Notes: generated by a model from the letters alone, not told the origin. Positions 1-20,369 are shown, counted from the first letter of the stretch. The stretch is 20,369 nucleotides of DNA from an uncultured Deinococcales bacterium (GCA_964247135.1 CAXTTL010000070.1:1-20369), one strand, 5' to 3'. Numbers and translations: made by a program.

Positions 1-97
1 TTTTTAGATTGCGGTTATCGTTTGGCGCGTCAACCATTATGAAAACCGCTGTAAAGGCTCGAGATTTGTGTTTTTAAAAAAAGTAATTGTCCGTCTT

Positions 98-138
98 CCC
101 TCATCCCCAACCCTTCTCCCAACATCGGGAGAAGGGGG
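98..138 (+). repeat. REP-like palindromic element (CCCTCATCCCC...CCCTTCTCCC-AACATC-GGGAGAAGGG type), copy 1
   Basis: Perfect 10-bp stem 111-120/127-136 with AACATC loop; related copy at 18079-18154. Confidence 0.8.
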
Positions 139-169
139 TTTAGGTGCTCTACACGCATTGCTCGAGATT

Positions 170-197
170 TTGCTAATTGCTAATTGCTATTCGCTAG
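170..197 (+). repeat. Short tandem heptamer repeat (TTGCTAA TTGCTAA TTGCTAT TCGCTAG)
   Basis: Four consecutive 7-mers directly after the stop codon of the ABC substrate-binding gene. Confidence 0.75.
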
Positions 198-201
198 TCT
201 C

Positions 202-1191
202 TCAGAACGGGAAATTCTTGTAATTGCTCTTGTCCACGTCCACAAACGCATTGCCACGAATGATCTTGCCTGCACCTGGTCCTTTGGTGACGGACACTTT
301 TTCGTACCCTTTGATGCCAAGGTTCATGCCGTCTTTGATGACTTTTTTCTCGAGCACCATTTGCGCGATTTTGTTCATGATGATGCCCGCATCTTTGGGG
401 TCCCAGAAGCCGATGCCGTCAACCGCGCCGGTTTCGATGTACTTGCCGGCAATGCTGGGCAGGCTGGTGCCGAAGACGCAAACTTTGTCGTTCAACCCAG
501 CTTCTTCGATGGCGCGTCCGATGCCGGCGACATCGGTGCTGGCGCTGCCTTGGAAGCCTTTGATGTCTGGGTATTTGGTCAGGATTTCCTTGGCTTTTTC
601 GTAGGCTTTATCGGCATCGTCGGCGGTTTCTTGTTTGGCGTCCACCAGCATCATCTTGGGGTTCTTGGCGGCGCTGGCAATGCCACCGTCTGCCCATTGG
701 TTGTGGGTTTTGCTGCCCAAACTGCCGACAAAGACCGTCCATTTGCCCTCGCCGCCCATGCACTTCTCGAGGCGCTTGTTGAGGTTTGCGCCGAAAGCCA
801 CGTTGTCAAAGGCTTCGATGTCATACAAGGTGTTCTTTTGGTTGTCGGCTTCGTGGGTGATGATTTTGATGCCCTTAGCCATCGCGGTTTTAAAGATCGG
901 CTCGAGGGTGGCAGGGTCCATCGGCACGACGGCGATGGCGTCTGGCTTTTTGGCGACCAAGTCGGTGATCAGTTGAAGTTGTTGCGCGGGGTCGGCTTGG
1001 GCGGGTCCTGTTTGAGTGGCATTGTTGCCCGAGGTTTTGGCGTATTCTTTGACGCCTTCCTCCATGCGGTTAAACCAGTTGATGCCAGTGATTTTCACCA
1101 CCGTGGTGATCGTCCATTTTTTCTGGGCGAACACGCCAGTGACCCCTGCCGCGACGATGAGACCTGCGCCGATCAGTAGCACTTTCTTCAT
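202..1191 (-). CDS. Sugar/polyol ABC transporter substrate-binding protein (CUT2; LsrB/RhaS-like periplasmic binding fold), 329 aa
   Basis: ATG at 1191 with GGAGG RBS at 1196-1200; signal peptide [22 protein letters not shown]; motifs [27 protein letters not shown] and GFWDPKDAG. The ORF-track start at 1500 overlaps the permease and is too long. Confidence 0.9.
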
Positions 1192-1235
1192 AACGCCTCC
1201 TCTATCAAAGACTTGAACTTCAAGTCGGATGACCT

Positions 1236-2234
1236 TTAAGAATCTCGAGCGGGCTTTGGTTTTACAAAGTCCGCAAGTCGCGTTCCTGTCAGCACAATCG
1301 AAAGCAATAGCAGCAAGCCCCAGGTGAAATCTTTGAGAAAAGTGGATGTTCCCAGGACGTTTAAGGTGCTCGAGAGCATTTGCAGCGCGAAACTGGCGAG
1401 CACCACGCCGAGCATCTTGCCCCAACCGCCCGAGGGGTTGATGCCGCCCATCACGGCAATCAAGATGGCAATCAGCAAATAACTCGAGCCGTAATCCCAT
1501 TTGATGCTCGAGGCTCGGGAGGCAATGATGATGCCTGAGATGCTGGCAAGAACACCTGACAGGGTATAGGTCACAAGCTGAATGGTGTTGTTGTTGATGC
1601 CCGTGAAGTTCGCGGCTTTTGGATTTGTGCCCATCAGATACAAACGAAAACCAAAACGGCTGCGGGTCAAAAGCCAGGAAAACCCGAGCACGACCACCAT
1701 AAAAACAACAAATGGAATTGGAATGCCCAGGATGCTGCCGTTGCCAATCTGTCCGAAGACCTCAGTTTCGCCCAAATTCACCGAAGGTCCACCAGACAAT
1801 GCAACGGAGAGTCCAATAAAGACAAATTGCGTGCCGAGCGTTGCCAGAATCGGCGGGAAGTTGCCTTTTGATACCAAAAATCCGTTGACCAAACCGCAAG
1901 CTGTTCCGACCAACAAGGCGATCAGCACAAAGGCAATGGCGTACAGCGTACCTTGACCCGCGCCGCCGAAGCTCGAGCGCACAATCAAGCCTGCAACAAT
2001 GGCGGAAAGGTTGGCGATGCTGACCACCGACAGGTCAATGCCGCCGTTGCCTGAGATCATGGTGATGGCAATGGAAATCGCCAGCAAGCCAACCTCTGGG
2101 ACTTGCACCGCCATGCTCTGAAAGTTGTCTGGACTGAGAAACTGCCCTGAGGACAAAATGGCTGCCGCAATCAAAATCACGACGAGTGCCGCAATCAAAA
2201 ATCGAAGGTGATGGTCAGCCAGAACGGAGCGCAA
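1236..2234 (-). CDS. Sugar ABC transporter permease (BPD_transp_2 / RbsC-like)
   Basis: Polytopic hydrophobic protein with [25 protein letters not shown] (EAA-like loop) and AVMGG motifs; start chosen as TTG at 2234 after GAGAGGA (start uncertain). Confidence 0.9.
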
Positions 2235-2360
2235 AGTGATCCTCTCGAGTTTGGTAACGAACGATTGGCAAACGTTTGCAGGGTAGAGTTTAAAAAAAGT
2301 TGGACGGTTAAGCCAACGCGAAAACAAAAGCTGGGTTGTGGATTATTTCTATTCTGAGGG

Positions 2361-2744
2361 CTAGACCTGTCTCGAGTCAAGTGTCTTGGCACACGAATTC
2401 GTGTTTTGAGGCTCGAATTGCGAAACATGAAAGCCGTCATTGAATGCCAGAGAAAACCTCACAAGCCAATGCCCGCAAGGTTTGAGAATTCTTTGGTGCA
2501 AACCTCAAAACTGTTTCGGATCACACGAGCTTCAAGATTGAAGCTGCGGTTTCGTCAACCTTCGTTCACGGTCCACCCAATCGCCTTGGACTGCCAGGAA
2601 CAACGCCACGGCGGCAGCTTTGGTGGGCGCAATCTCGAGCTGTACGCCGTGCGATTTGTGATCTGGAGTGATAAACAGATAAACAAATGTCGAATCTTTG
2701 TTTCGTCATGCGCCATTTTCTGGCTTGGTTGTCACGGCACGCAT
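2361..2744 (-). pseudogene. Possible decayed ORF of unknown function interrupted by three TGA codons
   Basis: Frame reads MRAVTTKPENGA*RNKDSTFVYLFITPDHKSHGVQLEIAPTKAAAVALFLAVQGDWVDRERRLTKPQLQS*SSCDPKQF*GLHQRIL...; TGA at 2706-2708, 2532-2534 and 2505-2507; the exact antisense frame is open, as is typical for genes in this window. Confidence 0.3.
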
Positions 2745-2804
2745 CGTCTGAGGTATCATTTCAAAACATCACTTACCAATTCGTATTCCTTCCAGGGGGC
2801 AAGT

Positions 2805-3803
2805 ATGAAAAAAATCTTGAACGATCCGAATCATTTTGTGAACGAAATGCTCGAGGGAATGTACAAAGCACATCCCGAAATGGTCTCGAGCGTCGGAACT
2901 GACTTGCGTTGTCTGGTGCGCAGCGATGCGCCGGTCATGAACAAAGTGGCGATTGCCACGGGTGGCGGCTCGGGTCATTTGCCCGTGTTTTTAGGTTACG
3001 TCGGACCAGGAATGCTGAGCGGTTGCGCGATAGGTGACGTCTTTCAGTCGCCCAGCAGCGATCAGATGCTCGAGGTGACAAGGCGTATTCACGGCGGCAA
3101 AGGTGTGCTTTACGTCTACGGCAATTACGGCGGCGATGTCATGAATTTTGACATGGCAACTGAAATGGCGAGCCTGGAAGACATTGAAGTGCGCACGGTG
3201 CTGGTCAAGGAAGACGTTGCCAGCGCCAGCGCTGACCGTGCCAACACGCGACGCGGCGTGGCGGGCATGGTCTTTGCCTTCAAAATTGCGGGCGCGAAAG
3301 CCGATTTGGGCGCCTCGCTCGAGGAGGTCGAAGCATCAACCGTCAAGGCGCTCGCCAACATGCGAACGATGGGTGTGGCGCTCAGTCCGTGCATTCTGCC
3401 AGCCGTGGGCAGACCAACCTTTACCGTTCCCGACGGCGAGATGGAACTGGGCATGGGGATTCACGGCGAACCTGGCGTGCGTCGCGGCAAACTCGAGACT
3501 GCCGACCAGATTGCCGACACGATTCTCGAGACCATCACCGCCGACATGCCACTGGCGTCTGGCGATACGGTTTCGGTCATGGTCAACGGACTCGGCGCGA
3601 CGCCGCCCGAAGAGCTGTATATTCTCTACCGACGCGTGCACAACAACCTCGAGCAACAGGGCGTCAAAGTCCATAAAGCCTTCGTCGGCGAGTACGCCAC
3701 CAGCCTCGAGATGGCGGGTGCCAGCATCACGATTTTAAAACTAGATGCCGAATTGCAAACGCTGCTCGACCATCCCGCCCACACGCCGATGTTCAGGGTT
3801 TAA
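2805..3803 (+). CDS. dhaK: Dihydroxyacetone kinase family, substrate-binding subunit DhaK (Dak1), 332 aa
   Basis: MKKILNDP start (ATG 2805 after AGGGGG); GGGSGH, NYGGDVMNF, RRGVAG and catalytic GIHGEPG motifs. Confidence 0.93.
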   Translation: MKKILNDPNHFVNEMLEGMYKAHPEMVSSVGTDLRCLVRSDAPVMNKVAIATGGGSGHLPVFLGYVGPGMLSGCAIGDVFQSPSSDQMLEVTRRIHGGKGVLYVYGNYGGDVMNFDMATEMASLEDIEVRTVLVKEDVASASADRANTRRGVAGMVFAFKIAGAKADLGASLEEVEASTVKALANMRTMGVALSPCILPAVGRPTFTVPDGEMELGMGIHGEPGVRRGKLETADQIADTILETITADMPLASGDTVSVMVNGLGATPPEELYILYRRVHNNLEQQGVKVHKAFVGEYATSLEMAGASITILKLDAELQTLLDHPAHTPMFRV

Positions 3804-3805
3804 CC

Positions 3806-4423
3806 ATGACCGCAACCGACTTTCAGGCGGGAATCGAACGTGTCGCCAAAAAATTGCTCGAGATCACCGATTTGCTCAACACCCTGGACGCCGCGATGGG
3901 CGACGGCGATACCGGTGTCAGCGTCTCCAAGGGCGCTCTAGGGGTGCTCGAGCACACGGCTGCCAACCCAGTGGGCAGCGACATCGGTAAGTGGCTTGCC
4001 GGCGTTGGTATGGCGTACAACCGCGTCGCCCCGAGTACGATGGGCGCTCTGGTCGCCACAGCCCTGATGCGGGCGGGCAAAGAGGCATTGGGCAGCTCGA
4101 GCGTGGACAATCAAGGTCTGGCAAGAATGCTGATGTCAGCCAGCGTGGGCGTCCAAGAGCGCGGCAAAGCCAAACTGGGCGATAAAACCCTGGTGGACGC
4201 GCTGCACCCCGCCGCCGAAGCTTTCAGCGCCGCCATCGATGCAGGCTCGAGCTTGGAGGTCGCGGGGCAAGCGATGCTCGAGGCGGCACGCAATGGACGA
4301 GATGCGGCGACGCCTTTAAAAAGCATGATCGGACGGGCGAACTGGGTGGGCGGCACCGAAGGCAAAGTTGATCCTGGAACGGTGTTGGTGGTGACGGTGC
4401 TCGAGGCGTTGATGCAAGGTTGA
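3806..4423 (+). CDS. dhaL: Dihydroxyacetone kinase family, nucleotide-binding subunit DhaL (Dak2), 205 aa
   Basis: LD-x-x-x-GDGDTG, [13 protein letters not shown] and GRA...DPG motifs; starts 2 nt after the dhaK stop. Confidence 0.92.
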
Positions 4424-4544
4424 ATTTGAAACTCAACCGTTTCGCCAGATCAGCACGGTGAAAACAAACCATTCAATGCTGAGGGATAGCGACAAAACTG
4501 TGTTGACCTTGGTGTAAAAGGTTTTTGTTAAAACATAGTTATTG

Positions 4545-4593
4545 GTAGGGTGCGCCGTGAACACTGGCTGATGGTGCGCACGGCGCACCCTAC
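4545..4593. repeat. GTAG-family REP inverted doublet (REPIN-like)
   Basis: GTAGGGTGCGCCGTGAACAC (4545-4564) faces GGTGCGCACGGCGCACCCTAC (4573-4593; reverse complement GTAGGGTGCGCCGTGCGCACC); lies between convergent transcription units. Confidence 0.85.
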
Positions 4594-4597
4594 AGTT

Positions 4598-4750
4598 CTA
4601 TGCGCAGGCATTTCGCCAGACCAGCACCGTAAAAACGAACCATCCAACGCTGAACTGTAAAACGTGTCCCTTTGACTGGAGGCTCGAGTTTTTGAGGACG
4701 TGCAGATTTTCGTTTGCTCGAGTTCCAAAAACAATTTGAATGGTTGTCAT
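4598..4750 (-). CDS. Putative 50-aa small protein (MTTIQIVFGTRANENLHVLKNSSLQSKGHVLQFSVGWFVFTVLVWRNACA)
   Basis: ATG at 4750 preceded by GGGAG RBS, 23 nt downstream of the ArsR gene; not in the ORF track. Confidence 0.4.
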   Translation of the reverse strand: MTTIQIVFGTRANENLHVLKNSSLQSKGHVLQFSVGWFVFTVLVWRNACA

Positions 4751-4773
4751 GATTTTCTCCCAAATCTCGAACT

Positions 4774-5394
4774 TCACAAGTACCGTTCACCTTCCAAATT
4801 CACGCGCGTCACACCAGGAATTCTCGAGTAAATGCCTTTTGCGCGGGTCATCAAACCTGCGGCGATCAGTTCACGGCGCAGCGTGAAAAAATCTTCGTGA
4901 AATTCAGACAAGATCAAATTCACTTCGCGCTCGGGATACGCATGGTCAAACTCAAAACTTTCCAAGATTTTCTCGAGCACAATGTCGCGTTTTTTGCGTT
5001 GAGCTGGAATCGCCCGCAACCTTCCGCGTTTTAAAAATGTGTTCAACACTTTCAGTCGAAACCCGTCCGTTTCAGAATTCGCCTCGAGTTGCACCTCTTG
5101 CAAACTCACCAGCGCCGCCAGGGTTTGCTCGAGCACACTCTTTTTGACGTTGTAATTTTGGTAATACCCGTCTTTCACGCCCTCGAGAATTCCTGCCGCC
5201 TCGAGTTGCTTGAGGTGATGGCTGACCGTGGCTGGCGTGATGCTGAGAATGCTGGCGAGTTCTTCGGTGTGGCGCGATTTTTGCTGGCAAAGGTTGACGA
5301 TCAACACGCGGCTGGGATGCCCGAGCGCCTTAAAAAAATCGGAGCGCTGCTCGAGCGACACGGTGTTGTTTGGGGTGGGTTTGTGGCTGCTCAC
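4774..5394 (-). CDS. ArsR/SmtB-family regulator fused to C-terminal DUF2087 domain, 206 aa
   Basis: FKALGHPSR...TVSHHLKQL...GI (ArsR HTH); GRL-x-x-IPAQRKKR, Y-x-EREVN and D-x-x-TLRRELI (DUF2087); GTG start overlaps the upstream TGA. Confidence 0.88.
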   Translation of the reverse strand: MSSHKPTPNNTVSLEQRSDFFKALGHPSRVLIVNLCQQKSRHTEELASILSITPATVSHHLKQLEAAGILEGVKDGYYQNYNVKKSVLEQTLAALVSLQEVQLEANSETDGFRLKVLNTFLKRGRLRAIPAQRKKRDIVLEKILESFEFDHAYPEREVNLILSEFHEDFFTLRRELIAAGLMTRAKGIYSRIPGVTRVNLEGERYL

Positions 5395-5624
5395 GTCTCA
5401 GACCAGTTGCCTTCGGGCTTGGCGCTGGTCACGTTTTTGTAGGTTCCGGCAAACAAACCCCTGGCGGCAAGCATGATGCCAAGTTTGATTTCATTTTGAA
5501 TCACGGCTTCCTGGTTTTGTTCGGCTCTGGCAAGCTCGAGTTGATTTTTGAAGCTTCGTGCGAGGTGTCGGGTAATGGCATCGTATTTTTGGGCGAGCAG
5601 GATGGTTTCGGGTGTTTCGCTCAT
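5391..5624 (-). CDS. Small helical hypothetical protein, 77 aa, translationally coupled to the ArsR gene
   Basis: ATG 5624 after AGAGGG; GTGA overlap with ArsR start; directly downstream of a consensus promoter. Confidence 0.7.
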   Translation of the reverse strand: MSETPETILLAQKYDAITRHLARSFKNQLELARAEQNQEAVIQNEIKLGIMLAARGLFAGTYKNVTSAKPEGNWSET

Positions 5625-5649
5625 GGGACCCTCTTTCTGATTCGTTGAA

Positions 5650-5689
5650 TCTCGAATCAAATACTAGATTCTGATTCGAGAATTGTCAA
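5650..5689 (-). promoter_or_regulatory. Sigma70 promoter TTGACA-17-TAGTAT overlapped by a 10-12-10 inverted repeat (probable ArsR operator)
   Basis: -35 at 5684-5689, -10 at 5661-5666; perfect arms TCTCGAATCA (5650-5659) and TGATTCGAGA (5672-5681) flank the -10. Confidence 0.75.
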
Positions 5690-5707
5690 ATCAAATCCTC
5701 CGGCTTT

Positions 5708-5739
5708 AAAATAAAATGGGACGATTTTTCATCGTCCCA
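5708..5739 (-). terminator. Intrinsic terminator of the TPR gene
   Basis: 9-bp stem TGGGACGAT/ATCGTCCCA, 5-nt loop, followed by TTTTATTTT on the minus strand. Confidence 0.8.
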
Positions 5740-5771
5740 AACAAGTACAATTTAATTTTAGAACAAATGGC

Positions 5772-7907
5772 TTACTTGATCGCCGTCAAGTACGGTTGCA
5801 CATAGGTTTTTAAGTAACTGTCAATGCCAACCGACTTGGTAAACGCATCTTTTGCCGCCGCCAAATAGGTGCCCCGCGTGCCAGCCACGGCTTCTTCCTG
5901 CGCCAAACCAAAATTCATGACCCCAGAAAAATACCAACCGAGCGAGTACTTCGGGTCAGCCTTGGTTGCCTGCCCAAGCAACTCGAGCGTCTTGTCAAAA
6001 CGACCCTGATCGGCGTAAGCCACCGCCAAGGCGGTCATGACGGCAACGTTGGTATCCAGCGTGGTTAAAACCTCGTTTAACAAATCCACCGCATCATCGG
6101 TGTTGCCCGATTTGTACATGGCTTGCGCCACAAAAAATTTGAGTTGCGCATTGTCTGGATTTGCCGCCAGAGCCTTTTGAAACGCCGTTTGCGCCTCGAG
6201 CGCGTCCAGGGAGTTGCCCAAATCGAGCAGCGCCACCCCAAGTTGATAGGACTTTAAAGCCTCGCCCGTCAGTTTCAATACCCCAATTTTGCGGCGTTCG
6301 GGCATGAAAAATGCCATCGCCTGCCGCGCCGTCTCGAGGTCGGGTTGTTGCTTCAGGCTGGCTTCAAAAGCTTTTTGCGCATCGTCAAATTGACCAGACC
6401 ACATCGCGCCAACGCCGTTCCAATAACCGTATTCGGCAACGCTCGGGTTGCTTTTGACCAGGGCATCGACCAAAGGATTTGCCTTGTCCAAACGCCCCGA
6501 AAGCAAATACATGCGGGCAATCAATTTGGGATCGAACTTGTCGCCAGCCGCTTTTTTCAGGGCTGCCTCGGCATCGCTATCGCGTCCCAATTTCGCGTTC
6601 GCATACGCCAAACCGGTCAACGCCTGAACGTTCGTGTCATCTCGAGAAACTGCCGTTTGATAGGCTTTGGCGGCATCCGCGTACAAACCTTGATGCTCGA
6701 GAATGCTGCCACGGGCGAACGCCAACGCCGAGCTGTCTGGGTAAGCCGCATCGCCTTTGGTGACAATCGCCAGTGCCTGATCGAGTTTTGGCAAACGGTT
6801 GGCGAGCGCATAAACCGTATCTGGAACGTCCGGCGTATCGCGCACCAAGTTGCGCAGGTAACGGGTGGCGCTGTCGCGGTCGTTGTTGAGATACAAGGTG
6901 ATCAGACGGTTGTGAAGCTCAACCTCATCGGGCATTCTGGGCACCAGGTTGAGAAGCACCGATTCGGCGGTTTGCCAACCCGTATTGCCGCCGTAACGCT
7001 CGAAAATATCGGCAACGTTCAATGCCGCCTCGAGAAAACGCGGGTTGTACTGCAAAGCGGTCTTAAATTCGTTGGTGGCGGCTTGCAAAATATCGTTGCT
7101 GAGCTTGTCCGCCCCGCGCAAAATGCGTAAACCCTGCAAGTAATGCAACTCGGGCTTGGAGGGATTGAGTTTTAAACCCGCATCGATCACCGTTTTGGCG
7201 TCCGCATTTTTCTTGCCCTGCAACTGAATCACGCCCGCCACCATCATCACGCTGGCATCGAGCGGCGCGAGTTTGGAGGCTTGAACCGCCAAGGGCAGGG
7301 CATCCGCCACTTTGCCAGTTTGGGACAAGAGCAAACCTCGAGCCGCCAGCGCCCAGGCGTTGCCCCCAGACTTCTCGAGAATGCCCACGCTGTCCTTTGC
7401 GCCCGGGGTCACGGCAGCCACGACCACCTCTGGCGCGGGCAATGCCGCCTCAATGCTCGAGATTTCTTTGATGTCATCGGTGCTCGGCTTTAAACCCAGC
7501 GCCTTGATTAAGGTTGCATCGGCGGTGGCAACCAATTTCTTGAAGTCACTGCCTTTTGCCACCAAGGTGCTCGACGCCGCGCCATCAACTTTTTTGACGG
7601 TGTACTCGAGCGAATACGCCCCGTCTTTACCCGAAACTTTGCCGCTGACGACATAATCTAGCGCATAAGAGTCCGCCATTCGCTCGCTATTCTCGGGGCG
7701 GGCGCGAAGGTACTGGTACAACTCGAACGGCGTTGGGGCGACCAAGCCGTCCACGCTCTCCAAGGCTCTAGACACTGCCGTTGGCACCGCCAGATTAAAG
7801 GCATCGAGATCGCCCTCGAGCGGCAAGAAACCGACACGTTGCGCGTTGGCGCTCGAGAAGACCCCCAGCGCGATCAGACCAAATACAATTCGGGTTTTGA
7901 AATTCAC
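5772..7907 (-). CDS. Secreted/periplasmic tetratricopeptide-repeat protein with N-terminal TolB-N/FlgO-like domain, 711 aa
   Basis: Signal peptide ending SANA; VGFLPL...DYVVSGKV N-domain; many TPR units ending in -LNP/-YNP/-DP. Confidence 0.85.
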   Translation of the reverse strand: MNFKTRIVFGLIALGVFSSANAQRVGFLPLEGDLDAFNLAVPTAVSRALESVDGLVAPTPFELYQYLRARPENSERMADSYALDYVVSGKVSGKDGAYSLEYTVKKVDGAASSTLVAKGSDFKKLVATADATLIKALGLKPSTDDIKEISSIEAALPAPEVVVAAVTPGAKDSVGILEKSGGNAWALAARGLLLSQTGKVADALPLAVQASKLAPLDASVMMVAGVIQLQGKKNADAKTVIDAGLKLNPSKPELHYLQGLRILRGADKLSNDILQAATNEFKTALQYNPRFLEAALNVADIFERYGGNTGWQTAESVLLNLVPRMPDEVELHNRLITLYLNNDRDSATRYLRNLVRDTPDVPDTVYALANRLPKLDQALAIVTKGDAAYPDSSALAFARGSILEHQGLYADAAKAYQTAVSRDDTNVQALTGLAYANAKLGRDSDAEAALKKAAGDKFDPKLIARMYLLSGRLDKANPLVDALVKSNPSVAEYGYWNGVGAMWSGQFDDAQKAFEASLKQQPDLETARQAMAFFMPERRKIGVLKLTGEALKSYQLGVALLDLGNSLDALEAQTAFQKALAANPDNAQLKFFVAQAMYKSGNTDDAVDLLNEVLTTLDTNVAVMTALAVAYADQGRFDKTLELLGQATKADPKYSLGWYFSGVMNFGLAQEEAVAGTRGTYLAAAKDAFTKSVGIDSYLKTYVQPYLTAIK

Positions 7908-7913
7908 AGCGTC

Positions 7914-7919
7914 ACTATA
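7914..7919 (-). promoter_or_regulatory. -10 box TATAGT of a leaderless promoter
   Basis: TATAGT lies 6 nt upstream of the GTG start at 7907, with no Shine-Dalgarno sequence. Confidence 0.6.
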
Positions 7920-7995
7920 AGGGCAAGGCTTGGTGAAGGGAATGAGAGGACGGAAAGAAAAGCTTATGAAATGCCTTTAGACTCGAGAAAACAAG

Positions 7996-8027
7996 AAAAA
8001 AGTGCGCCCCAGTCTCGCGGCGCACTT
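7996..8027 (-). terminator. Intrinsic terminator of the HtrA gene
   Basis: AAGTGCGCC/GGCGCACTT stem with a T-run on the minus strand, 15 nt after the stop codon. Confidence 0.8.
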
Positions 8028-8042
8028 GATAAAGTGTTGGGT

Positions 8043-9341: not shown

Positions 9342-9501
9342 TTTAAATTTCCTCCTGAATTCAATCCTCGAGAAATACGTTCTTGCCCCATCCTAGTCTC
9401 AGATGACCCCCTCGAGTAGTGGTGCAAGTCTCTAACGCCGTTCTGAGAGGTATTGAACTCCCAAGAGTTGAGCAAATCCTGAATTCAGGCTTTTGAACTG
9501 C

Positions 9502-9537
9502 AAAACAAAAACCACTCGAGAATGGGTTTCTCGAGTG
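9502..9537 (-). terminator. Probable terminator whose stem is built from two CTCGAG copies
   Basis: CACTCGAGAA (9513-9522) / TTCTCGAGTG (9528-9537), then GTTTTTGTTTT on the minus strand. Confidence 0.7.
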
Positions 9538-9608
9538 ACATGAATTCAAGTTGCGTAATTGTTAGCAGTCAACTCTTGTTTGAGAAAGTCAGAGGCAAGC
9601 AACTGAAA

Positions 9609-10082: not shown

Positions 10083-10167
10083 ATAAAACTCCAATACACT
10101 GCCAGTAAAATCTGGCGTGAGGGATAATAGGTAGCTCGAGATTCTCGAAGTACAGAGTTTGAGCTTG

Positions 10168-11946: not shown

Positions 11947-12015
11947 ACTTCCCCCTTATGGCTCGAGGTTCGTTGGTTTTTGATCCTCCTCGAGCTTTGT
12001 AAAATGAGTATTTCA

Positions 12016-12050
12016 TTCGGGCGTCCGAAAACGTCCGAGTCAAAATGAAG
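12016..12050. promoter_or_regulatory. Candidate regulator-binding region between the divergent lipoprotein and TPR-regulator genes
   Basis: Near-perfect palindrome TTCGGGCGTCCGAA (12016-12029); direct repeat CGTCCGA at 12022 and 12032; AACGTCC...AAAATGAAG also found reverse-complemented at 14130-14153. Confidence 0.5.
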
Positions 12051-12087
12051 ACGAATTTTGTATGCAATTAAAAATATCTCGAGTGTT

Positions 12088-12115
12088 TTGCTGCTCGAGG
12101 ATTTCCCGATATACT
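12088..12115 (+). promoter_or_regulatory. Leaderless promoter of the TPR regulator
   Basis: TATACT (12110-12115) 7 nt upstream of ATG 12123; TTGCTG 16 nt further upstream; no SD. Confidence 0.6.
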
Positions 12116-12122
12116 TTAAGAA

Positions 12123-13787: not shown

Positions 13788-13801
13788 AATGAAGGTAATC
13801 A

Positions 13802-13831
13802 ATGCCACCTGCAAACTTTCACAGGTGGCAT
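13802..13831. terminator. Stem-loop between the convergent regulator and peptide genes
   Basis: Perfect 10-bp stem ATGCCACCTG/CAGGTGGCAT with 10-nt loop; no strong U-tract. Confidence 0.6.
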
Positions 13832-13838
13832 CGGGGCT

Positions 13839-14000
13839 TTAGCGCCTGCATTTGACGCATGGCAGAGTTGGGTCTGCGTAAGCAGTGGATGTTGTTAAAC
13901 CCAATCCGCTTAGAATGACCACGATGGTAACGCAAATTTTAAACTTGCTAAAAATATTTGCGTTTTGTATCGCCGTCCCGACTTGAATGTAGTTTTTCAT
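13839..14000 (-). CDS. 53-aa secreted pre-peptide; predicted mature 11-mer DPTLPCVKCRR
   Basis: ATG 14000 after AAGGAAG; basic n-region KFK, hydrophobic h-region ICVTIVVILSGLGL, A-Y-A signal peptidase I site, then only 11 residues with CxxC. Confidence 0.7.
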   Translation of the reverse strand: MKNYIQVGTAIQNANIFSKFKICVTIVVILSGLGLTTSTAYADPTLPCVKCRR

Positions 14001-14065
14001 CGTCGCTTCCTTTTGAACAAAACTGCGCGAAGTTGGCTGCGCCCTTGGTAGTTTTGTTTCCACGG

Positions 14066-14209
14066 ATGCTAGGATCAGTGTCTAAATTTGATCTGACGGT
14101 TTTTGTTGCCTGGTCTAAAATGGCGAGTGCTTCATTTTTGCGTCTTGGACGTTATATTGACTGATCTCTCGAGATAAACAAATTCGACTCTAAAATCTGA
14201 TCTAAAATC
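14066..14209 (-). promoter_or_regulatory. Peptide-gene promoter with phased direct repeats (SARP-box geometry)
   Basis: -10 TAGCAT at 14066-14071; TTTAGAC (14080-14086) exactly 8 nt upstream; degenerate GTCAGAT at +11 and perfect TTTAGAC at +33 (14113-14119); additional GATTTTAGA pair at 14189-14197 and 14201-14209. Confidence 0.55.
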
Positions 14210-14312
14210 AGGGATTGTTTCGCGGCAGAGTTGAGGTACGAGCACATCATTCTGTGAGTGTCAGATGGATTATTTTCTACAGGTGACACACCCAATTCAA
14301 ATTGCTTTGAGG

Positions 14313-14342
14313 TTGATTCAAAGCCGAAGCTTTTGTTACAAT
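14313..14342 (+). promoter_or_regulatory. Promoter of the AT-rich SARP/AAA gene
   Basis: TTGATT-18-TACAAT with extended TGn; GGGGA RBS before TTG 14361. Confidence 0.5.
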
Positions 14343-14360
14343 GAGTGCCAGGGGATACTT

Positions 14361-16312
14361 TTGATTAAGCTCAATTTTTTTGGTTTGCCGTCAGCAATGG
14401 TAGATGATAAGAGTGTCAAACTCTTGGACAGCAGAGCGTATGTGCTACTGGCGTATCTAGTATTAAGTGAAAGCCCTATGCTTGAACGAAGAAAGCTTGC
14501 TTTTTTATTGTGGGAGGATTACGAAGTTTCAGATGGTTTAAAAAGTCTATCAAATTTAATATATAAAATCATAAAAGTGTTAGGTAAAGATGTTTTAAAA
14601 ACAAACCTTAAAGAAATTGGAATTGGTGAAATTTATTGTGAATCTGTTGAGTATGAAAAATTTGATTTTGAAACTCAATTTGAAATGTTAAAAAATGGAT
14701 TTTTACGATCTATTAACTTAGAAGATTATATGGAAATTAAAACAAAAAATAGTAAAAATATTGCTGAGATAGTAAACTTTATTACTGAAAAAAATGATAA
14801 TTTTAAATATGAAGCATCTAAAATAGCTGAAAGATTAATTATAAATTGTATTAAGCAAAAAGAATTTGAAAAATCTATTACTTACTTAGAATTCTTAATA
14901 TTTAATGATTTTAACACAGAGTTTAATCCTGTTAAAATATATTTTTTAACTCTTGGAATAATAAATAAAAGTAAAATGATTGAGACTTCAAAATTTAATT
15001 ATCAAACTTATCTGAAAAAATTAAATGATAAGGTGAAAATAGATGGTGAAATTGTTAAAACAATTGAACTAGCCGAATCTAAAAATCCATTAAATTGTCA
15101 AAAAGAGTTAGAAAAAATTATATCAATAGAACCAAGTAAAAATGAAATTCGATTTTTCAGACGTCAAAAATATTGGGATCAACTGACTGATGCTTTTCAA
15201 CAAGGGAAAACAGTTGGTATCTACGGTGATAATGGTGTCGGAAAAACGAGAATGGTTCGAGAGTTTATTAAAACTCAGGGTAAAATTTTGGAGTTTTCAG
15301 GACAAATTATAGATCAAAATATAGATTATGTATGCCTTGTTAGAACTTATGAGCATATTCTAAAAATTAAAAATTTAAAATTTCCTGAAGATATTTTAAA
15401 GCAATGGAGTAGATTTATTCCGAGTCTTGTTAAAAAACCACTTGGAGTATTAAAAGCAGGTGAAAAACAAGCTTTTTTTGATGCGGTATATCGAACATAT
15501 TTAATATACCTAGCTAGTCTTAAAAAAAATGATTTTGAATATATGTTTTGGAATAATGTTCATCTTTGTGATTTAAAATCTGTGGAAGCTGGTATTTATA
15601 TGGAATCGAGGTGTTTAATGGAAGGATTAGATGCGCCTTCATCAATATTTGCTTATGAAACAACTAGAATAAAAGAAAAAACGCACTTAAGTTTTACCGA
15701 TTGGAAAAAACTAAAAGACGGCTTTGTTTTAATTAAAATTGAAAACTTATCTGAAGATGAAATACAACAACTTTTATTAGAAAATAATTTAGATTTAGGT
15801 CTATCTAAAATTTTATTTGAAAATACTAATGGAAAGATGTCTTTGATCTGTAGAATACTAGGTAATTTTCTTAAGAATGATAAAAATATTGAATTTTTAT
15901 CTAAAATCACCCCAGAATTAGAAGATTATTTTAATGATCAAATACTATCAGCTAAAAACTCATATGTACTGGCTCAATATGCTGCTGTAATGGAGGAAAT
16001 ATTAAAAAAATATAATTTGATAGATTATTTTGGTGAAATAATTGGCAAATTATGCAATATTAATAATGAATTTAAGAAAAAAGAAATAGAATTAAATAAT
16101 AACTATATTTTTAGTACTTTAAAACGTAAGAAAAAAACATTTTTGAAAATCAACTAATATTTGAATATATTTTAAGTAAAATTTCAGATAGAGAAAAATT
16201 TGATTTACTGAATGAAATTCTAAAAATTTTAAAGAAAAATAAGAGTATTTCTAAAATTATTTTAGAAAAATATACTGAAGAAATCAAAAAGTATAAATTT
16301 GGGCGCTTTTAA
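14361..16312 (+). pseudogene. AT-rich SARP (AfsR/DnrI-like) regulator with AAA/P-loop domain, frameshifted near the 3' end (first frame stops at 16157, second at 16312)
   Basis: N-terminus IKLNFFGLP...LLAYLVL...RRKLAFLLW aligns by eye with the SARP at 20004; Walker A GDNGVGKT; degenerate Walker B region NNVHLCDLKS; homologous-looking continuation FENQLIFEYILSKISDREK in the -1 frame after A7/T5 runs. Confidence 0.7.
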
Positions 16313-16544
16313 AGGCGAAAATGATGATTTTATAGGTACAATTTAGTTAATCTCGAAATAGTTCTTTTGGTTTCAGGTTGTATGAGATAACTGCCAAACG
16401 TACTCGCATTAAAAACCGCTCGAGAAACATTGTTCTCTCGAGCAGTAAAAATTCACGAATTTACAATTTGATATTCCTCATAGCCCTTCACCAAATCAAA
16501 CTCGAGTCGAGTTCTCAGGCGACCACGGATTTCAGGTTGCACAC

Positions 16545-16571
16545 AAACCAACAACCGAATTTGTTGGTTTT
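16545..16571. terminator. Terminator-like hairpin upstream of the protease pair
   Basis: AAACCAACAA/TTGTTGGTTT 10-bp stem, 6-nt loop. Confidence 0.45.
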
Positions 16572-16616
16572 ATGAAGTTGCGCAGCAACGAAGTTGTGGT
16601 GCTGCTCGAGACAGAA

Positions 16617-16645
16617 TTGAAAACTTCAGTCTCAACGTCTACACT
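16617..16645 (+). promoter_or_regulatory. Leaderless sigma70 promoter TTGAAA-17-TACACT
   Basis: -10 at 16640-16645 is 6 nt upstream of ATG 16652. Confidence 0.7.
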
Positions 16646-16651
16646 GACCAC

Positions 16652-16912
16652 ATGACATGGTTAGAGATTCGAGATCAATACCCCAACACCTGGCTGTTAC
16701 TCGAGGCAATTACTGCCCATTCCGAGAATAACCAGCGAATTTTGGAGGAACTCTCGGTCATCTCGAGATTCGATGATTCTGAAAGCGCTCTTGATGCGTA
16801 TTCAGCACTTCATGAAATTGCCCCCGCTCGAGAATTGCTGGTGTTGCACACCAGTCAAGAAAAACTCGAAATCAAAGAACGATTCTGGATGGGAATTCGG
16901 ATGGCGGCGTGA
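16652..16912 (+). CDS. Small acidic hypothetical protein (DUF5678-like partner of retropepsin genes), 86 aa
   Basis: MTWLEIRDQYPNTWLLLEA N-terminus; leaderless promoter; GTGA overlap with the protease gene. Confidence 0.75.
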   Translation: MTWLEIRDQYPNTWLLLEAITAHSENNQRILEELSVISRFDDSESALDAYSALHEIAPARELLVLHTSQEKLEIKERFWMGIRMAA

Positions 16913-17298
16913 ACATTCGGTTATGGCACGGCTTGCCGTTTGTTCAAGTCAGGCTTGAGCACAATAGGATAAGCAAGGTTCTAGAAACAGTTTTGCTTGA
17001 CACGGGTTCTGCTGGAACACTTTTCAACACATTACGATTGCGTGATATGGGTATTGGTTTTGCACCAGGCGACCCAGTTCATAAAATTCGAGGCGTCGGT
17101 GGCTCAGAATTTGTATTCAGCAAAAAACTCGAACGCATCAGTGTTTTGTCGCTCGAGCTTCAAAATTTTGATGTCGAGGTCAGTCCCATGAAATACGGAA
17201 TAGACATGGACGGAATTTTAGGACTTGATTTTTTAATGCAAACCCGAGCGATTATTGATTTGGATGCGTTGAACTTGCGAAGCTCAACAAATTCTTAA
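16909..17298 (+). CDS. Retropepsin-like (clan AA) aspartic protease, 129 aa
   Basis: LLDTGS catalytic motif, IRGVGG flap and DGILGLDFL motif; no signal peptide. Confidence 0.88.
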   Translation: MNIRLWHGLPFVQVRLEHNRISKVLETVLLDTGSAGTLFNTLRLRDMGIGFAPGDPVHKIRGVGGSEFVFSKKLERISVLSLELQNFDVEVSPMKYGIDMDGILGLDFLMQTRAIIDLDALNLRSSTNS

Positions 17299-17390
17299 CG
17301 ATGTTGTCCCGCTAACCGCGCTCCAGCCAAAAATGCGGCACAATACCCTCAAGGAAGCAAACTCGAGACTCGAGTTTTACGGAGGACACC

Positions 17391-18056
17391 ATGAGCTTAC
17401 AAAACAGAATGTTTGAATTGCGCACACCCGAAGATGTGGACAGTTTCGTCACGCAGTACCCAACCGCCGCGATTTTTAAAGCCGGAACTTGCCACAAAAC
17501 CATGCAAGGTTGGGGCAACATCGAAAAGCTCTTGCGCGAGCGCGAAGACGTGCCAGTCGGTATCATTCGCGTGGTCGAAGCCCGACCAGCCAGCAATTAC
17601 GTCGAAGCCCGCACGGGCATCACCCACCAAAGCCCGCAACTGATTTTGTTCCGCGAGGGTGAAGCCAAATTTGACCTCGACAATTGGAACATCACGCCCG
17701 AAAACCTCGAGCCACGGTTTGAAGCTTACCTGCCAGCTTTAGAGGGCGAAAACGTGGCGAAAACGGGTGCGAAAACCAACCTCGAGCCTTACAAGAAATT
17801 GCTCGATGGGTACATTGCGGGGCAAGTTTCGGAACCACAATTTCAATGGACGTACTTGGAAATGTTCCGCGCCGACGCCAGTTTACGCAGCCAAGAAGAG
17901 TTCGATGTCTTGAACAGTTTGTTTGGCAACCCAGACGAGCATCACATTCACCCTGGGGCGATCATGAATCTCGAGGCGCAAATGCAAGACCAGCAAGCGA
18001 TAGCGCCGCTTCTCGAGCGTGCGCAGGAATTGCGGACGGTTTTGAACGCACTCTGA
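17391..18056 (+). CDS. abxC: Monothiol bacilliredoxin BrxC/YtxJ family, Deinococcus AbxC type with C-terminal helical extension, 221 aa
   Basis: FKAGTCHKT active site, R-x-x-SN and HQSPQLILF motifs; about 100-aa C-terminal extension; GGAGG RBS at 17381-17385. Confidence 0.85.
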   Translation: MSLQNRMFELRTPEDVDSFVTQYPTAAIFKAGTCHKTMQGWGNIEKLLREREDVPVGIIRVVEARPASNYVEARTGITHQSPQLILFREGEAKFDLDNWNITPENLEPRFEAYLPALEGENVAKTGAKTNLEPYKKLLDGYIAGQVSEPQFQWTYLEMFRADASLRSQEEFDVLNSLFGNPDEHHIHPGAIMNLEAQMQDQQAIAPLLERAQELRTVLNAL

Positions 18057-18078
18057 AATAAATCGTTGTGGTTCTGCT

Positions 18079-18154
18079 CTCATCCCCGACCCTTCTTGAT
18101 TCCAAGACGCACCTTCGGGCGGACTCCCTTCTCTCAACATCGAGAGAAGGGAGT
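18079..18154 (+). repeat. REP-like palindromic element, copy 2 (with internal insertion)
   Basis: CTCATCCCCGACCCTTCT + 29 nt + CCCTTCTCTC-AACATC-GAGAGAAGGG; 13-bp stem 18123-18135/18142-18154; lies between convergent genes. Confidence 0.8.
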
Positions 18155-18212
18155 TTGATTTATTTATACGTGTGGCTCGAGATTTTTGTTTGATTTCATT
18201 CGGCTTTCGAGT

Positions 18213-19922
18213 TTACAAATTTCGTTTCTCGAGCACTTCCAAAAGCTGTTCGTAACTGACGGCATATTTTCGGGCAACATCGGATGCGTAACTAATTCCC
18301 TTAGACGCAGAACGCACAATGCGATACGTGCGCTTGTGCTCTTTGCCGTCGTCTTCGGTGACCGACACCAAACTCGCCAAGTTGCTCGAGCCTGGATGTT
18401 GGTTGACGCTGTCCACATCGGCAAGTTCGTGCATGTGCGTGGCAAAAATGGCGCGGACGCCCAAATACCTAAAGGCTCGCAAAATATCCCTCGCCAGGTA
18501 CACGCCCTCACCTGGGCTGGTGCTCGAGAGGGATTCGTTTAACAGGATCAGGCTGTGCTGACTGGCTTTGTGAAACAGTGCGTTTAACCGTCCTGCCTCT
18601 TCACCGAGCCGACCGGTGACGGATTCGGATTTTTCTTCGACTGGAAAGTGCGTGTAAATGCTGTCAATTGGGCTGATGCTGGCACTTTTGGCGGGAACAT
18701 GCGCCCCCATTTGGCACAGCACATGCGCCAAACCGACGGCTTGAATGAAGGTGGTTTTGCCGCCAGAGTTTGGTCCGGTCAGAATAAAAATTTTTCCGGT
18801 GTCGTCAAAATCGACATTGTTGCCCACAATCTTGTTGCCCAAATCTCGCTCGCCGTTTTTTTCAAAACGCAGTGCCAGCAAAACATTGGTTAAACCCTCA
18901 AAATGATCCTCTCGAGCCTCAGGGTTTGTCAAATCGGGCTTGCACATCGCCACGCCCAAAGCTTGCAAGCGTTTGACCAGCGTCGCCGCGCCCAGGTAAA
19001 ACGCGAACTCTGCCTCGAGGTGCAAAAGTGGGTGCGAAAAAACTTGAATGTACTGCTTTAAGACTTGCGCCACAGGACGGGTGGTGTCCTCGAGCATTTT
19101 CTCGAGGTCGGCAAAGAAGGTTGCCAGCATTCGGTCTTTGCCCGAGGCGCTGATCGCCACCTTGCCCGAACCAAAGCCGGATTCCATCGTGCTGCCACTG
19201 ATCGCGCCCATGATCGCCGCGCCGATGCCGCGTTTGGCGTCTCGAGATTGCAGGCTGGTCATGCCAATAAATTCTGGTTTTTTCTGCATTAAAAACGAGG
19301 TGACCGAATGGGTCTTGCCGACGAACCTCTCGGAATTGATCGACAGCAATGTGGCTTCTGAGGGTCTTAATTGCGCGTCGAGGTTGATCCCAACCGTCAG
19401 GCTGGTCAGGTTGCTGACCGAGCGCCGCAACTCGGGCAATTTTTGTTTCATGTCTTCAAACGATTGTTCTTGCGTGATCTCGAGCACCAATCGTTGCAAT
19501 TCTTGCAATGCGCCAGATTCAATTTTTGCGCTTTCCAGCACGCTCGAGAGTCGGTTGAGCACATCCACGTACAACTCGAGTTCCGAAAGTCGGGTCATTA
19601 AGAGTTGCAACTGACTTAAATCGCCCTCCCTGGAATTGAGTTCTTTGAGTTCGTGCAACAAGGGCAGCACGTCTTTGATGCCTTCAAACAGCAAACTCGA
19701 GCGCATAAAATCGGCAAAGACTTCTTGACGGTACGCGATTGTGGACACGTTGCCGCTGAAATGCGAAATGATTCGTTCGACATGGGGCTTGAAACGTGGT
19801 TCGATGCAGAGTGCCGCCACCAGTTCCACCAGTGCCAGGTCATGAATGCTTTCGCTCCCCAGTTCGATGGAGACGGGCGTGTCCGTGTTTTGCCACAGAC
19901 AACTGAAATGCTCGAGGTTCAT
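18213..19922 (-). CDS. MutS-related protein (MutS domain V ATPase, lacking the mismatch-binding domain), 569 aa
   Basis: LTGPNSGGKTT, G-x-x-VPA, IYTHF, GRLGEE, LILLNES and FATH motifs; start set at ATG 19922 by leaderless -10. Confidence 0.88.
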   Translation of the reverse strand: MNLEHFSCLWQNTDTPVSIELGSESIHDLALVELVAALCIEPRFKPHVERIISHFSGNVSTIAYRQEVFADFMRSSLLFEGIKDVLPLLHELKELNSREGDLSQLQLLMTRLSELELYVDVLNRLSSVLESAKIESGALQELQRLVLEITQEQSFEDMKQKLPELRRSVSNLTSLTVGINLDAQLRPSEATLLSINSERFVGKTHSVTSFLMQKKPEFIGMTSLQSRDAKRGIGAAIMGAISGSTMESGFGSGKVAISASGKDRMLATFFADLEKMLEDTTRPVAQVLKQYIQVFSHPLLHLEAEFAFYLGAATLVKRLQALGVAMCKPDLTNPEAREDHFEGLTNVLLALRFEKNGERDLGNKIVGNNVDFDDTGKIFILTGPNSGGKTTFIQAVGLAHVLCQMGAHVPAKSASISPIDSIYTHFPVEEKSESVTGRLGEEAGRLNALFHKASQHSLILLNESLSSTSPGEGVYLARDILRAFRYLGVRAIFATHMHELADVDSVNQHPGSSNLASLVSVTEDDGKEHKRTYRIVRSASKGISYASDVARKYAVSYEQLLEVLEKRNL

Positions 19923-19929
19923 TGAAAGA

Positions 19930-19938
19930 AGTTTAGCA
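19930..19938 (-). promoter_or_regulatory. Extended -10 (TGC-TAAACT) of a leaderless promoter
   Basis: 7 nt upstream of ATG 19922; no SD. Confidence 0.6.
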
Positions 19939-20003
19939 CTCGAGATTGCCACCCGAGCCTCCCCCAAGTTTGGGCGTAACATGTACGTTCAAGGAGGCTG
20001 AGG

Positions 20004-20369
20004 TTGCTCGAGGTCACGCTGCTGGGCAAACCGAGCTTGCAAATGGATGGGTTGGCGTTGGTTCTGCCGACCCGCAAGTCGCTGGCTTTGCTGGCGTACC
20101 TGGCGCTCGAGGGGGCAACATCACGCTCAAAGCTGGCGGATTTATTTTGGGGCGAACTTGCCGAGGATGATGCCCGCAAGAACTTGCGTCAAGAATTGCA
20201 TCGGCTTTCCAAAACCCCGCTTGGGGTGCTGCTCGAGCAACGCCCCGAGACGATTGCGCTGGGTGGCTTTAGCTTGGATGTGCAGCGGTTTCGGACGTTT
20301 CTGACCGAAGGCGATTTCGAGGCGGCGCTCGCGTTGTACCAGGGTCCGTTGCTCGAGGGCTTGGAGTTG
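20004..20369 (+). CDS. SARP/AfsR-family transcriptional regulator, 5' part (runs off the window)
   Basis: AAGGAGG at 19991-19997, TTG 20004; MLEVTLLGKP...RKSLALLAYLALEG...SRSKLADLFW...ARKNLRQELHRL...LDVQRF...ALALYQGPLLEG; missing from the ORF track because it has no stop codon. Confidence 0.9.
   Translation, partial: MLEVTLLGKPSLQMDGLALVLPTRKSLALLAYLALEGATSRSKLADLFWGELAEDDARKNLRQELHRLSKTPLGVLLEQRPETIALGGFSLDVQRFRTFLTEGDFEAALALYQGPLLEGLEL

Follow-up and report, generated by a model that had tools for sequence, protein, structure and literature searches.

CTCGAG, a highly iterated palindrome in the family of an uncultured Deinococcales bacterium

Highly iterated palindromes (HIPs), of which HIP1 (GCGATCGC) is the type, have hitherto been known from cyanobacteria alone, and their cause is under debate, with selection, biased repair and DNA uptake as the contenders. 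The question arises anew with a contig of 20,369 nucleotides from an uncultured Deinococcales bacterium (GCA_964247135.1 CAXTTL010000070.1:1-20369; contig C70 of genome G000, referred to in its full length as the window), which is crowded with the palindrome CTCGAG: is this a HIP in the cyanobacterial sense, and what keeps it so frequent? We report that CTCGAG is a highly iterated palindrome in that sense in the family of this bacterium (f1), and that a methylation-linked fixation bias, to which we give a probability of about 0.4, is the best explanation at hand. The present case, independent, denser and from a different phylum, shows that the phenomenon is general.

Abundance of CTCGAG from the window to the family

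The window contains exactly 108 copies of CTCGAG, the first at position 58 and the last at 20352-20357. The zero-order expectation is 4.5 (observed-to-expected ratio, O/E, of 24), and 100 dinucleotide-preserving shuffles yielded a mean of 2.85 copies and a maximum of 6. The original prediction, made by a model from the sequence alone, had counted about 108 copies against about 5 expected and had put the enrichment at about 20-fold, which is borne out. It had also described, again correctly, sites in several reading frames and densely in intergenic DNA. When placed on 17 chosen open reading frames (ORFs), 55 of the 108 sites read CTC GAG (Leu-Glu), 20 read xxC TCG AGx and 10 read xCT CGA Gxx, while the 2,633 bp of intergenic DNA held the remaining 23 (8.7 per kb, versus 4.8 per kb in ORFs).

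The enrichment extends beyond the window. The G000 assembly (5,091,702 bp in 386 contigs, the longest of 116 kb; 52.7% guanine plus cytosine, GC; 84% complete) contains 33,925 copies, one per 150 bp and approximately 25 times the base-composition expectation (1,369 zero-order; 2,351 under a trinucleotide Markov model), and CTCGAG is its commonest hexamer by more than two-fold. Across 2-kb intervals the O/E was 23.6-26.0 in six of seven GC classes and 17.5 in the lowest class (<35% GC; four intervals). Contrary to these nulls, a maximal-order (pentamer) Markov model gave an O/E of just 1.24; we discount this null as circular, because most CTCGA and TCGAG pentamers sit within CTCGAG. The inner tetramer TCGA occurs 54,610 times, with 62% of the copies inside CTCGAG and the remainder at expectation, and both GTCGAC and TTCGAA are ten-fold depleted.

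Such an excess might simply follow from codon or dipeptide usage, or come from a repeat family scattered through the genome. The CTC GAG reading accounts for 63% of the coding sites in G000, the pentamer model gives the low ratio mentioned above, and some sites of the window lie within many-copy short repeats, near 76-172 and 18073-18190. Coding sites, located by crude gene calls made genome-wide in this analysis, were compared with two nulls. Shuffling synonymous codons within each gene, which keeps both protein and codon usage, gave 3,835 copies where 27,380 are observed, a 7.1-fold excess (by phase, 17,203, 3,962 and 6,215 observed versus 3,014, 262 and 560 in the shuffles). Shuffling codon order left 1,629 coding copies, a 16.8-fold excess. 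Intergenic DNA was the densest class (7.81 per kb, versus 6.63 per kb in native genes). The flanks of CTCGAG carry little information: the most frequent neighbours, G at -1 and C at +1, are found at 39% of sites genome-wide and the strongest intergenic flank base at 45%. Moreover, 4,807 distinct 26-base contexts were found among 4,820 intergenic sites. The enrichment is thus shown to be independent of codon use, in line with what had been argued from the window, and of dispersed repeats: the shuffles, the intergenic density and the unique contexts refute an artefact of either kind, to which we leave practically no probability.

The excess extends to protein sequences. G000 encodes 22,142 Leu-Glu pairs, 77.7% of which are spelled CTCGAG, as compared with 5.0% expected from context-free codon use. 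Leu-Glu has an O/E of 2.37, the highest of all dipeptides, and the reverse pair Glu-Leu one of 1.01. The force behind the palindrome, whatever its nature, alters amino-acid sequences to the point of using Leu-Glu 2.4-fold too often. One region of the window serves as a worked example of this rewriting:

2853..3803, plus strand: DhaK domain region

Six CTCGAG-coded Leu-Glu pairs lie in this region (at 3069, 3318, 3492, 3525, 3648 and 3705), along with one out-of-frame CTCGAG at 2885. At these six positions, 72 homologues taken from loci without a Deinococcota label most often have AD, LD, LQ, MD, LA and ME, and Leu-Glu is present there in just 3 to 12 of them. The DhaK region thus shows the cost of CTCGAG to proteins.

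The closest entries in public databases are metagenome-assembled genomes that bear the labels Deinococcales, Meiothermus sp., Trueperaceae or Deinococcota. Among the 80 loci of the nearest-record search, which came from many phyla, the median CTCGAG O/E was 0.6 and a value above 10 was found in the best match alone. Relatives were compared in a set of 40 genomes, each sampled for up to 20 kb, of which 18 belong to f1 (five genera). All 18 had an O/E between 9.7 and 32.6, and CTCGAG was the top hexamer in 17 of them. In the ten f1 genomes with large enough samples, the synonymous-shuffle ratio was 3.9-13.7 and the density outside ORFs 3.6-10.2 CTCGAG per kb; larger samples from five f1 genomes (60-366 kb each, one closed) contained 4.8-7.3 per kb. 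The highly iterated palindrome proposed for the window is therefore a property of the whole genome and of the family.

Outside f1, densities were taken from a phylum sample of 150 high-quality Deinococcota genomes, in which G000 alone represents f1. The largest genus of this sample, g7 (77 genomes), under-represents CTCGAG, with 26-1,010 copies in genomes of 1.9-6.1 Mb where composition predicts approximately 0.3 per kb; the shortage suggests CTCGAG-specific restriction in that lineage. Genus g9 (27 genomes) mostly has approximately 0.8-1.0 per kb, with a maximum of 1.6, some genomes of family f2 have 1.5-2.4 per kb, and genera g13, g18 and g19, with 1.4-3.4 per kb, reach the highest densities outside f1 in the phylum sample. 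Taken together with the values in f1, these densities indicate a trait that is graded within the order and extreme in f1. This gradient among relatives (under-represented, about 1-3 and 5-7 per kb) offers a comparative handle that HIP1 lacks. It also has a practical side, as CTCGAG distorts the k-mer, codon and composition statistics used for binning, gene-transfer detection and annotation of these metagenome-assembled genomes.

Preservation of sites between genomes

Conservation was tested on 242 kb of the same-genus genome G005 aligned to G000 at 85% identity, i.e. on a single genome pair, using the criterion that was applied to HIP1 by Xu et al. (PMC5861425). The controls were 23 palindromes of equal GC, all other hexamers with four G or C (4-GC hexamers), and the one-off variants of CTCGAG. 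Over all aligned DNA the Jaccard index was 0.69 for CTCGAG, 0.18 for control palindromes, 0.30 for other 4-GC hexamers and 0.22 for one-off variants; the corresponding values in non-coding DNA were 0.66, 0.13, 0.28 and 0.15. Split by reading frame, the index for CTCGAG ranged from 0.59 to 0.73. Sites are thus preserved between genomes as they are for HIP1, which supports the HIP-like behaviour originally claimed. Identity between the two genomes was 0.93-0.95 at each base of CTCGAG and fell to 0.81-0.89 in the flanks, precisely where the six bases end.

The same difference was seen for individual codons, which were conserved more often inside CTCGAG than outside it (CTC, 0.879 versus 0.544; GAG, 0.874 versus 0.650; TCG, 0.872 versus 0.604; CGA, 0.807 versus 0.499). 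Synonymous third-position divergence inside and outside was 0.068 and 0.358 for CTC, 0.072 and 0.283 for GAG, 0.050 and 0.296 for TCG, and 0.113 and 0.394 for CGA, and non-coding divergence was 0.049 and 0.167. Loss of CTCGAG therefore runs at 0.17-0.29 of background. This measured relative loss fits a force of S ≈ 2.3-3 (S of 2.5-3 predicts 0.16-0.22), while the base-frequency corrected ratios of the word to its one-off variants yield S of 2.7-3.9 when the variant that contains CTAG (5.7) is set aside. The estimates from abundance and from loss rate agree and so point to a weak, uniform force with S of about 2.5-3, comparable in magnitude to that of strong codon bias or biased gene conversion. 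Changes could be polarised in six same-genus genomes over approximately 10 kb of the window, where about 31 sites were shared by all genomes, alongside 14 losses and 9 gains confined to single lineages; raised gain and lowered loss are not separable with so few events.

These properties place CTCGAG beside HIP1 and the alternate HIPs (as described in PMC4390886 and PMC5861425). Shared features are a short GC-rich palindrome enriched 15-fold or more, its occurrence in all frames and in non-coding DNA, outside any longer repeat and beyond codon usage, the better conservation of sites than of control palindromes and of inner codons than of the same codons elsewhere, and a host genome that avoids many other palindromes. 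CTCGAG differs from HIP1 in having six letters rather than eight and in belonging to another phylum. Moreover, one-off variants of HIP1 (HIP1*) are conserved above controls and those of CTCGAG are not, deviations from HIP1 concentrate at its outer positions and those from CTCGAG do not, and CGATCG and GATC methyltransferases generally accompany HIP1, whereas no conserved cognate was found in f1. Of eight features that we list for the HIP class, five were found for CTCGAG and one, the conservation of one-off variants, was absent; the other two on the list are a methyltransferase specific for the word or its core, which Elhai expects where the word is abundant, and a periodic distribution over 10-90 kb.

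Preservation in every frame and in non-coding DNA, with exact six-base edges, could also be the signature of selection for a many-copy function at the DNA level that is independent of methylation. A dimeric protein that organises the nucleoid or chromosome might, for example, bind CTCGAG, each site bringing a slight gain in fitness. The same pattern of HIP1 was read as selection by Xu, Lawrence and Durand (2018; PMC5861425), and the lack of a conserved methyltransferase in f1, described below, would fit as well. However, a fixation bias gives the same preservation, no protein binding CTCGAG is known, and approximately 34,000 sites each with S near 3 would amount to a heavy selective load. The spacing of sites in G000 is near-geometric (mean 148, median 108 where 103 is expected, coefficient of variation 0.96) and thus shows no sign of a need for even coverage. 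Examined at short range in G000, it revealed no regular spacing or helical phasing beyond a 3-base coding period and a shortage below approximately 18 bp; of the periodicity that had been suggested as a check, only the coding period was present at this range. We regard selection of this kind as unlikely, though it deserves to be taken seriously.

Candidate explanations and the methyltransferases of the genome

According to the methylation-linked fixation bias that we favour, a weak, uniform and hexamer-exact bias would keep CTCGAG at about 6-7 per kb in f1. It would act on all DNA alike, would slow the loss of sites four- to six-fold and would have pushed proteins towards Leu-Glu. CTCGAG would be the target of a restriction-less N6-methyladenine (m6A) methyltransferase like that in cultured relatives, and repair or recombination in a transformable lineage may resolve mismatches or heteroduplexes in favour of the methylated palindrome. 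Fixation of new sites would then outpace their loss, like in the ratchet that Elhai put forward for HIP1, where methylation steers mismatch correction such that word-creating mutations are kept (PMC4390886).

The link to methylation is plausible because cultured Deinococcota carry restriction-less m6A CTCGAG methyltransferases. The S3 Table of Blow et al. 2016 (PMC4752239) lists three active type II enzymes that methylate CTCGAG to m6A: M.Mru1279II of Meiothermus ruber DSM 1279 (99.5% of sites detected), M.Mch9957IV of M. chliarophilus DSM 9957 (94.1%) and M.Mhy14884I of Marinithermus hydrothermalis DSM 14884 (94.6%), the last being the single active enzyme of two listed for that species. A cognate nuclease is listed for none of the three. 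The main text of that paper does not name these organisms and does not contain the enrichment phrases that were searched for. These enzymes have the same word, the same order of bacteria and the absence of a listed nuclease in common with what we propose for f1, and genomes of neighbouring families in the phylum sample contain CTCGAG at densities of up to 3.4 per kb; they differ in that no counterpart gene was identified in f1, where the gamma-class candidates compared were less than 30% identical and patchy. Cultured Meiothermus and Marinithermus that methylate CTCGAG without a partner nuclease provide an experimental handle that HIP1 lacks.

A number of results weigh against the proposed bias, and most of them concern the enzyme. 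The search for a METHYLTRANSFERASE covered the Pfam families PF00145, PF01555, PF02086, PF02384 and PF07669 in G000 (84% complete) and the same five families in five further f1 genomes (one of them a single closed contig), after which the matches were clustered. G000 holds two C5 (cytosine-5), four N6_N4-family, one D12 (Dam-like) and one HsdM-like enzyme, as well as two MmeI-like enzymes and one methyltransferase-SNF2 fusion. Six of the seven small methyltransferases (two C5, three N6_N4 and the D12 enzyme) adjoin nuclease-family genes, and the HsdM-like enzyme adjoins an HsdS gene. The six pairs are given below with the sites that, going by the enzyme names, we take to be the prototypes of the neighbouring nucleases:

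D12 enzyme, beside RE_SacI (29.7 bits): GAGCTC, 0 copies in G000
N6_N4 enzyme, beside PvuII (224 bits): CAGCTG, 15 copies in G000
C5 enzyme, beside NgoPII (286 bits): GGCC, O/E 0.02 in G000
C5 enzyme, beside Eco29kI (228 bits): CCGCGG, 11 copies in G000
N6_N4 enzyme, beside a NotI-like gene (25 bits, weak): CGGCCG counted, 3 copies in G000
N6_N4 enzyme, beside MvaI/BcnI (217 bits)

As candidates for the CTCGAG enzyme the paired methyltransferases were rejected, given that their neighbours assign them to depleted words instead (GAGCTC, CAGCTG, GGCC, CCGCGG and others). Depletion of this kind is widespread in G000: 36 of the 64 palindromic hexamers have an O/E below 0.2, 17 of them at or below 0.04, with such examples as GGGCCC (1 copy), CGGCCG (3), AGGCCT (4), CGTACG (5) and GGATCC (7). 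The original prediction had given it as background that restriction-site palindromes are normally avoided, and for other palindromes this holds. The restriction-modification pairs would account for this avoidance, at least at several of the palindromes, and leave none of the paired enzymes for CTCGAG.

An orphan-like methyltransferase gene (466 amino acids, SPPY motif) sits between core genes in G000, but at 60% identity or above it matched sequences in just 3 of the 40 relatives, and in two of these the match is interrupted by stop codons; a further four relatives had weaker matches (23-27% identity). For each of four paired enzymes, orthologues were found in just 3 to 4 of the 40 relatives. 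By the five Pfam families and the gene neighbours, no CTCGAG methyltransferase was identified in G000 or the other f1 genomes searched, and no C5, N6_N4, D12 or gamma-class group was common to the six f1 genomes, including the closed one, which has one C5, no N6_N4 and two D12 enzymes (one of SacI type). Among 151 phylum genomes, a gamma methyltransferase from a genus with moderate enrichment was present in 9, without tracking site density, and gamma-class enzymes of neighbouring families are less than 30% identical to those of f1, every group being patchy. Of the cognate methyltransferase that had been predicted, the gene was thus not identified; what speaks for it are the restriction-less m6A CTCGAG enzymes listed for cultured relatives. 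The XhoI nuclease family (PF04555) had no match in G000, but control genomes gave none either.

The remaining points against the bias come from the sites themselves. The one-off variants, the CTAG-containing one apart, have O/E values of 0.51-1.74 and hence are not depleted, nor are they better conserved than controls (Jaccard values above). Single-letter differences between G000 and G005 in CTCGAG are mostly transitions and amount to 29%, 28% and 22% at half-site positions 1, 2 and 3; with turnover so spread, no single mismatch type stands out. The near-geometric spacing is no help to the bias either. Elhai's model predicts saturation near one site per kb, versus the six to seven per kb in f1, which makes CTCGAG some six to seven times denser than HIP1, for which Elhai gives roughly one per kb (PMC4390886). 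Finally, our data do not separate repair bias from selection for function.

A more specific form of biased repair would be C5 methylation of CTCGAG combined with a Vsr-type nuclease that restores T:G mismatches. The Dcm/Vsr system of E. coli is the textbook route to over-representation of a methylated word, with a small effect; there, as proposed here, a methylated word gains copies via biased mismatch correction. C5 enzymes for CTCGAG do exist elsewhere, in Halorubrum (PMC8112702) and, with 'V.' in the cognate column, in the entries for Rhodopseudomonas and Nocardia (PMC4752239, S3 Table). However, Vsr (PF03852) was found in none of 19 f1 genomes, one of them closed, and in 2 of 41 genomes overall, in a search that matched the controls E. 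coli, B. subtilis and Caulobacter. Both C5 enzymes of G000 pair with NgoPII and Eco29kI nucleases, the deamination neighbours CTTGAG/CTCAAG are not depleted (O/E 1.17), changes are alike at positions 1, 2 and 3, and the known mark of the relatives is m6A and not 5-methylcytosine. Very-short-patch repair of the Vsr type is thereby largely refuted, we consider it most improbable, and the biased repair of the original prediction is, in this version, unlikely to be right.

DNA uptake or recombination could also spread a word without any benefit to the cell, if CTCGAG, perhaps methylated, marks DNA of kin for the transformation machinery and fragments with many copies enter the cell or recombine more frequently. 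CTCGAG alters proteins and falls at random positions, as such a drive would give, and 18 of 19 f1 genomes carry a ComEC-family gene. ComEC does not discriminate, however, since with all 22 other relatives it occurs in 40 of 41 genomes, among them some that under-represent CTCGAG. The DNA uptake sequences of Neisseria and Haemophilus have 9-12 letters, are not palindromic and occur about once per kb. Like CTCGAG they are short words found genome-wide at high density, are also read as peptides and have been proposed to spread by drive rather than by benefit; CTCGAG differs as a six-letter palindrome from these longer, non-palindromic words. Six bases are very short for an uptake signal and known signals of this kind are not palindromes, which counts against a drive. 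For HIP1, a 2026 paper argues for a methylation-dependent uptake watermark (PMC13756078). On balance we find an uptake or recombination drive rather improbable for CTCGAG.

We extend a similarly low degree of belief to a bolder, joint proposal in which m6A-CTCGAG would be a kin watermark: repair, recombination or transformation machinery would keep the strands that bear it, and the resulting self-sustaining drive, having arisen independently of HIP1, would be strong enough to rewrite roughly half of all Leu-Glu pairs in the proteome. If this were true, the 30-year-old HIP question would become directly testable in cultured relatives that methylate CTCGAG. We found no published report of CTCGAG enrichment in open-access full text and bioRxiv.

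The search of methyltransferases also yielded observations on restriction-modification in f1. Several avoided palindromes match nuclease families beside G000 methyltransferases, while CGTACG, GGATCC and GCATGC are without an assigned enzyme here. The D12 methyltransferase gene overlaps the SacI-family nuclease gene by 4 bp (contig C320, L025:1061-2985). GAGCTC is absent from the 5.09 Mb of G000, each of the 18 f1 genomes has 0-1 copies in its sample (up to 20 kb), and orthologues of the SacI-associated D12 enzyme (75-83% identity) are found in two other f1 genomes of two genera; from these comparisons, the SacI-type system looks like a long-standing resident of f1. In G000 an inosine-uridine nucleoside hydrolase gene is followed by the NgoPII-type nuclease and C5 methyltransferase genes (C14, L023), and in G005 the same hydrolase gene is followed by a D12 methyltransferase and a 405-amino-acid ORF (C6, L220). 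The hydrolase locus thus looks like a hot spot for swapped restriction-modification cassettes.

Layout of the window and its variable island

The window consists of core-genome DNA interrupted by a variable region:

58..9535: core-genome block with 60 of the 108 sites; same-genus genomes are collinear with it and 84-87% identical
9538..14173: left-hand section of an island specific to the strain, GC 0.42, 15 sites, approximately 18 times the composition expectation
14174..16418: site-free stretch, GC 0.27, with a 630-amino-acid ORF at 14265-16157 that has a weak AAA_16 match
16419..17300: right edge of the variable region, 8 sites, with only partial matches in same-genus genomes
17301..20357: core block with 25 sites, encoding an AbxC-like bacilliredoxin and a MutS-domain-V ATPase

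By Pfam matches, the first core block encodes a sugar ATP-binding cassette (ABC) transporter, DhaK/DhaL, an ArsR-like regulator, a TPR protein and an HtrA-like protease. G005 runs from the equivalent of window position 9537 almost directly to that of 17301, the island position lying between its HtrA-like protease and bacilliredoxin genes, and window 9.5-16.6 kb had no match in any of five same-genus genomes. A Big_5 surface protein is encoded in the left part of the island, as is a TPR protein that matches PADLOC PDLC01171 (300.8 bits), and a PDC-M08A/B candidate defence gene pair lies at 16652-17298. From this gene content the variable island at 9538-17300 (approximately 7.8 kb) is probably a defence island.

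The gap between sites at 14168-16419 is the third longest of 33,539 between-site gaps in the assembly. Its lack of sites is weak evidence for recent arrival, because a GC of 0.27 predicts 0.1 site by chance and approximately 2.5 at 25-fold enrichment. As proof that foreign DNA lacks CTCGAG, the site-free 2.25-kb stretch is weakened by this same prediction of just about 2.5 sites.

Two further features of the window were noted. The MutS-domain-V ATPase (18213-19982, minus strand; 589 amino acids, 89.6 bits) contains 14 CTCGAG sites and is conserved in the genus; it has a weak likeness to KamC-type reactivase ATPases and is without mismatch-binding and Smr domains. No link between this protein and CTCGAG was found. 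Intergenic elements of approximately 100 bp near 76-172, 4487-4597 and 18056-18190 belong to a set of dozens of copies with 75-95% identity, and the same elements are present in G000 and in all five same-genus genomes.

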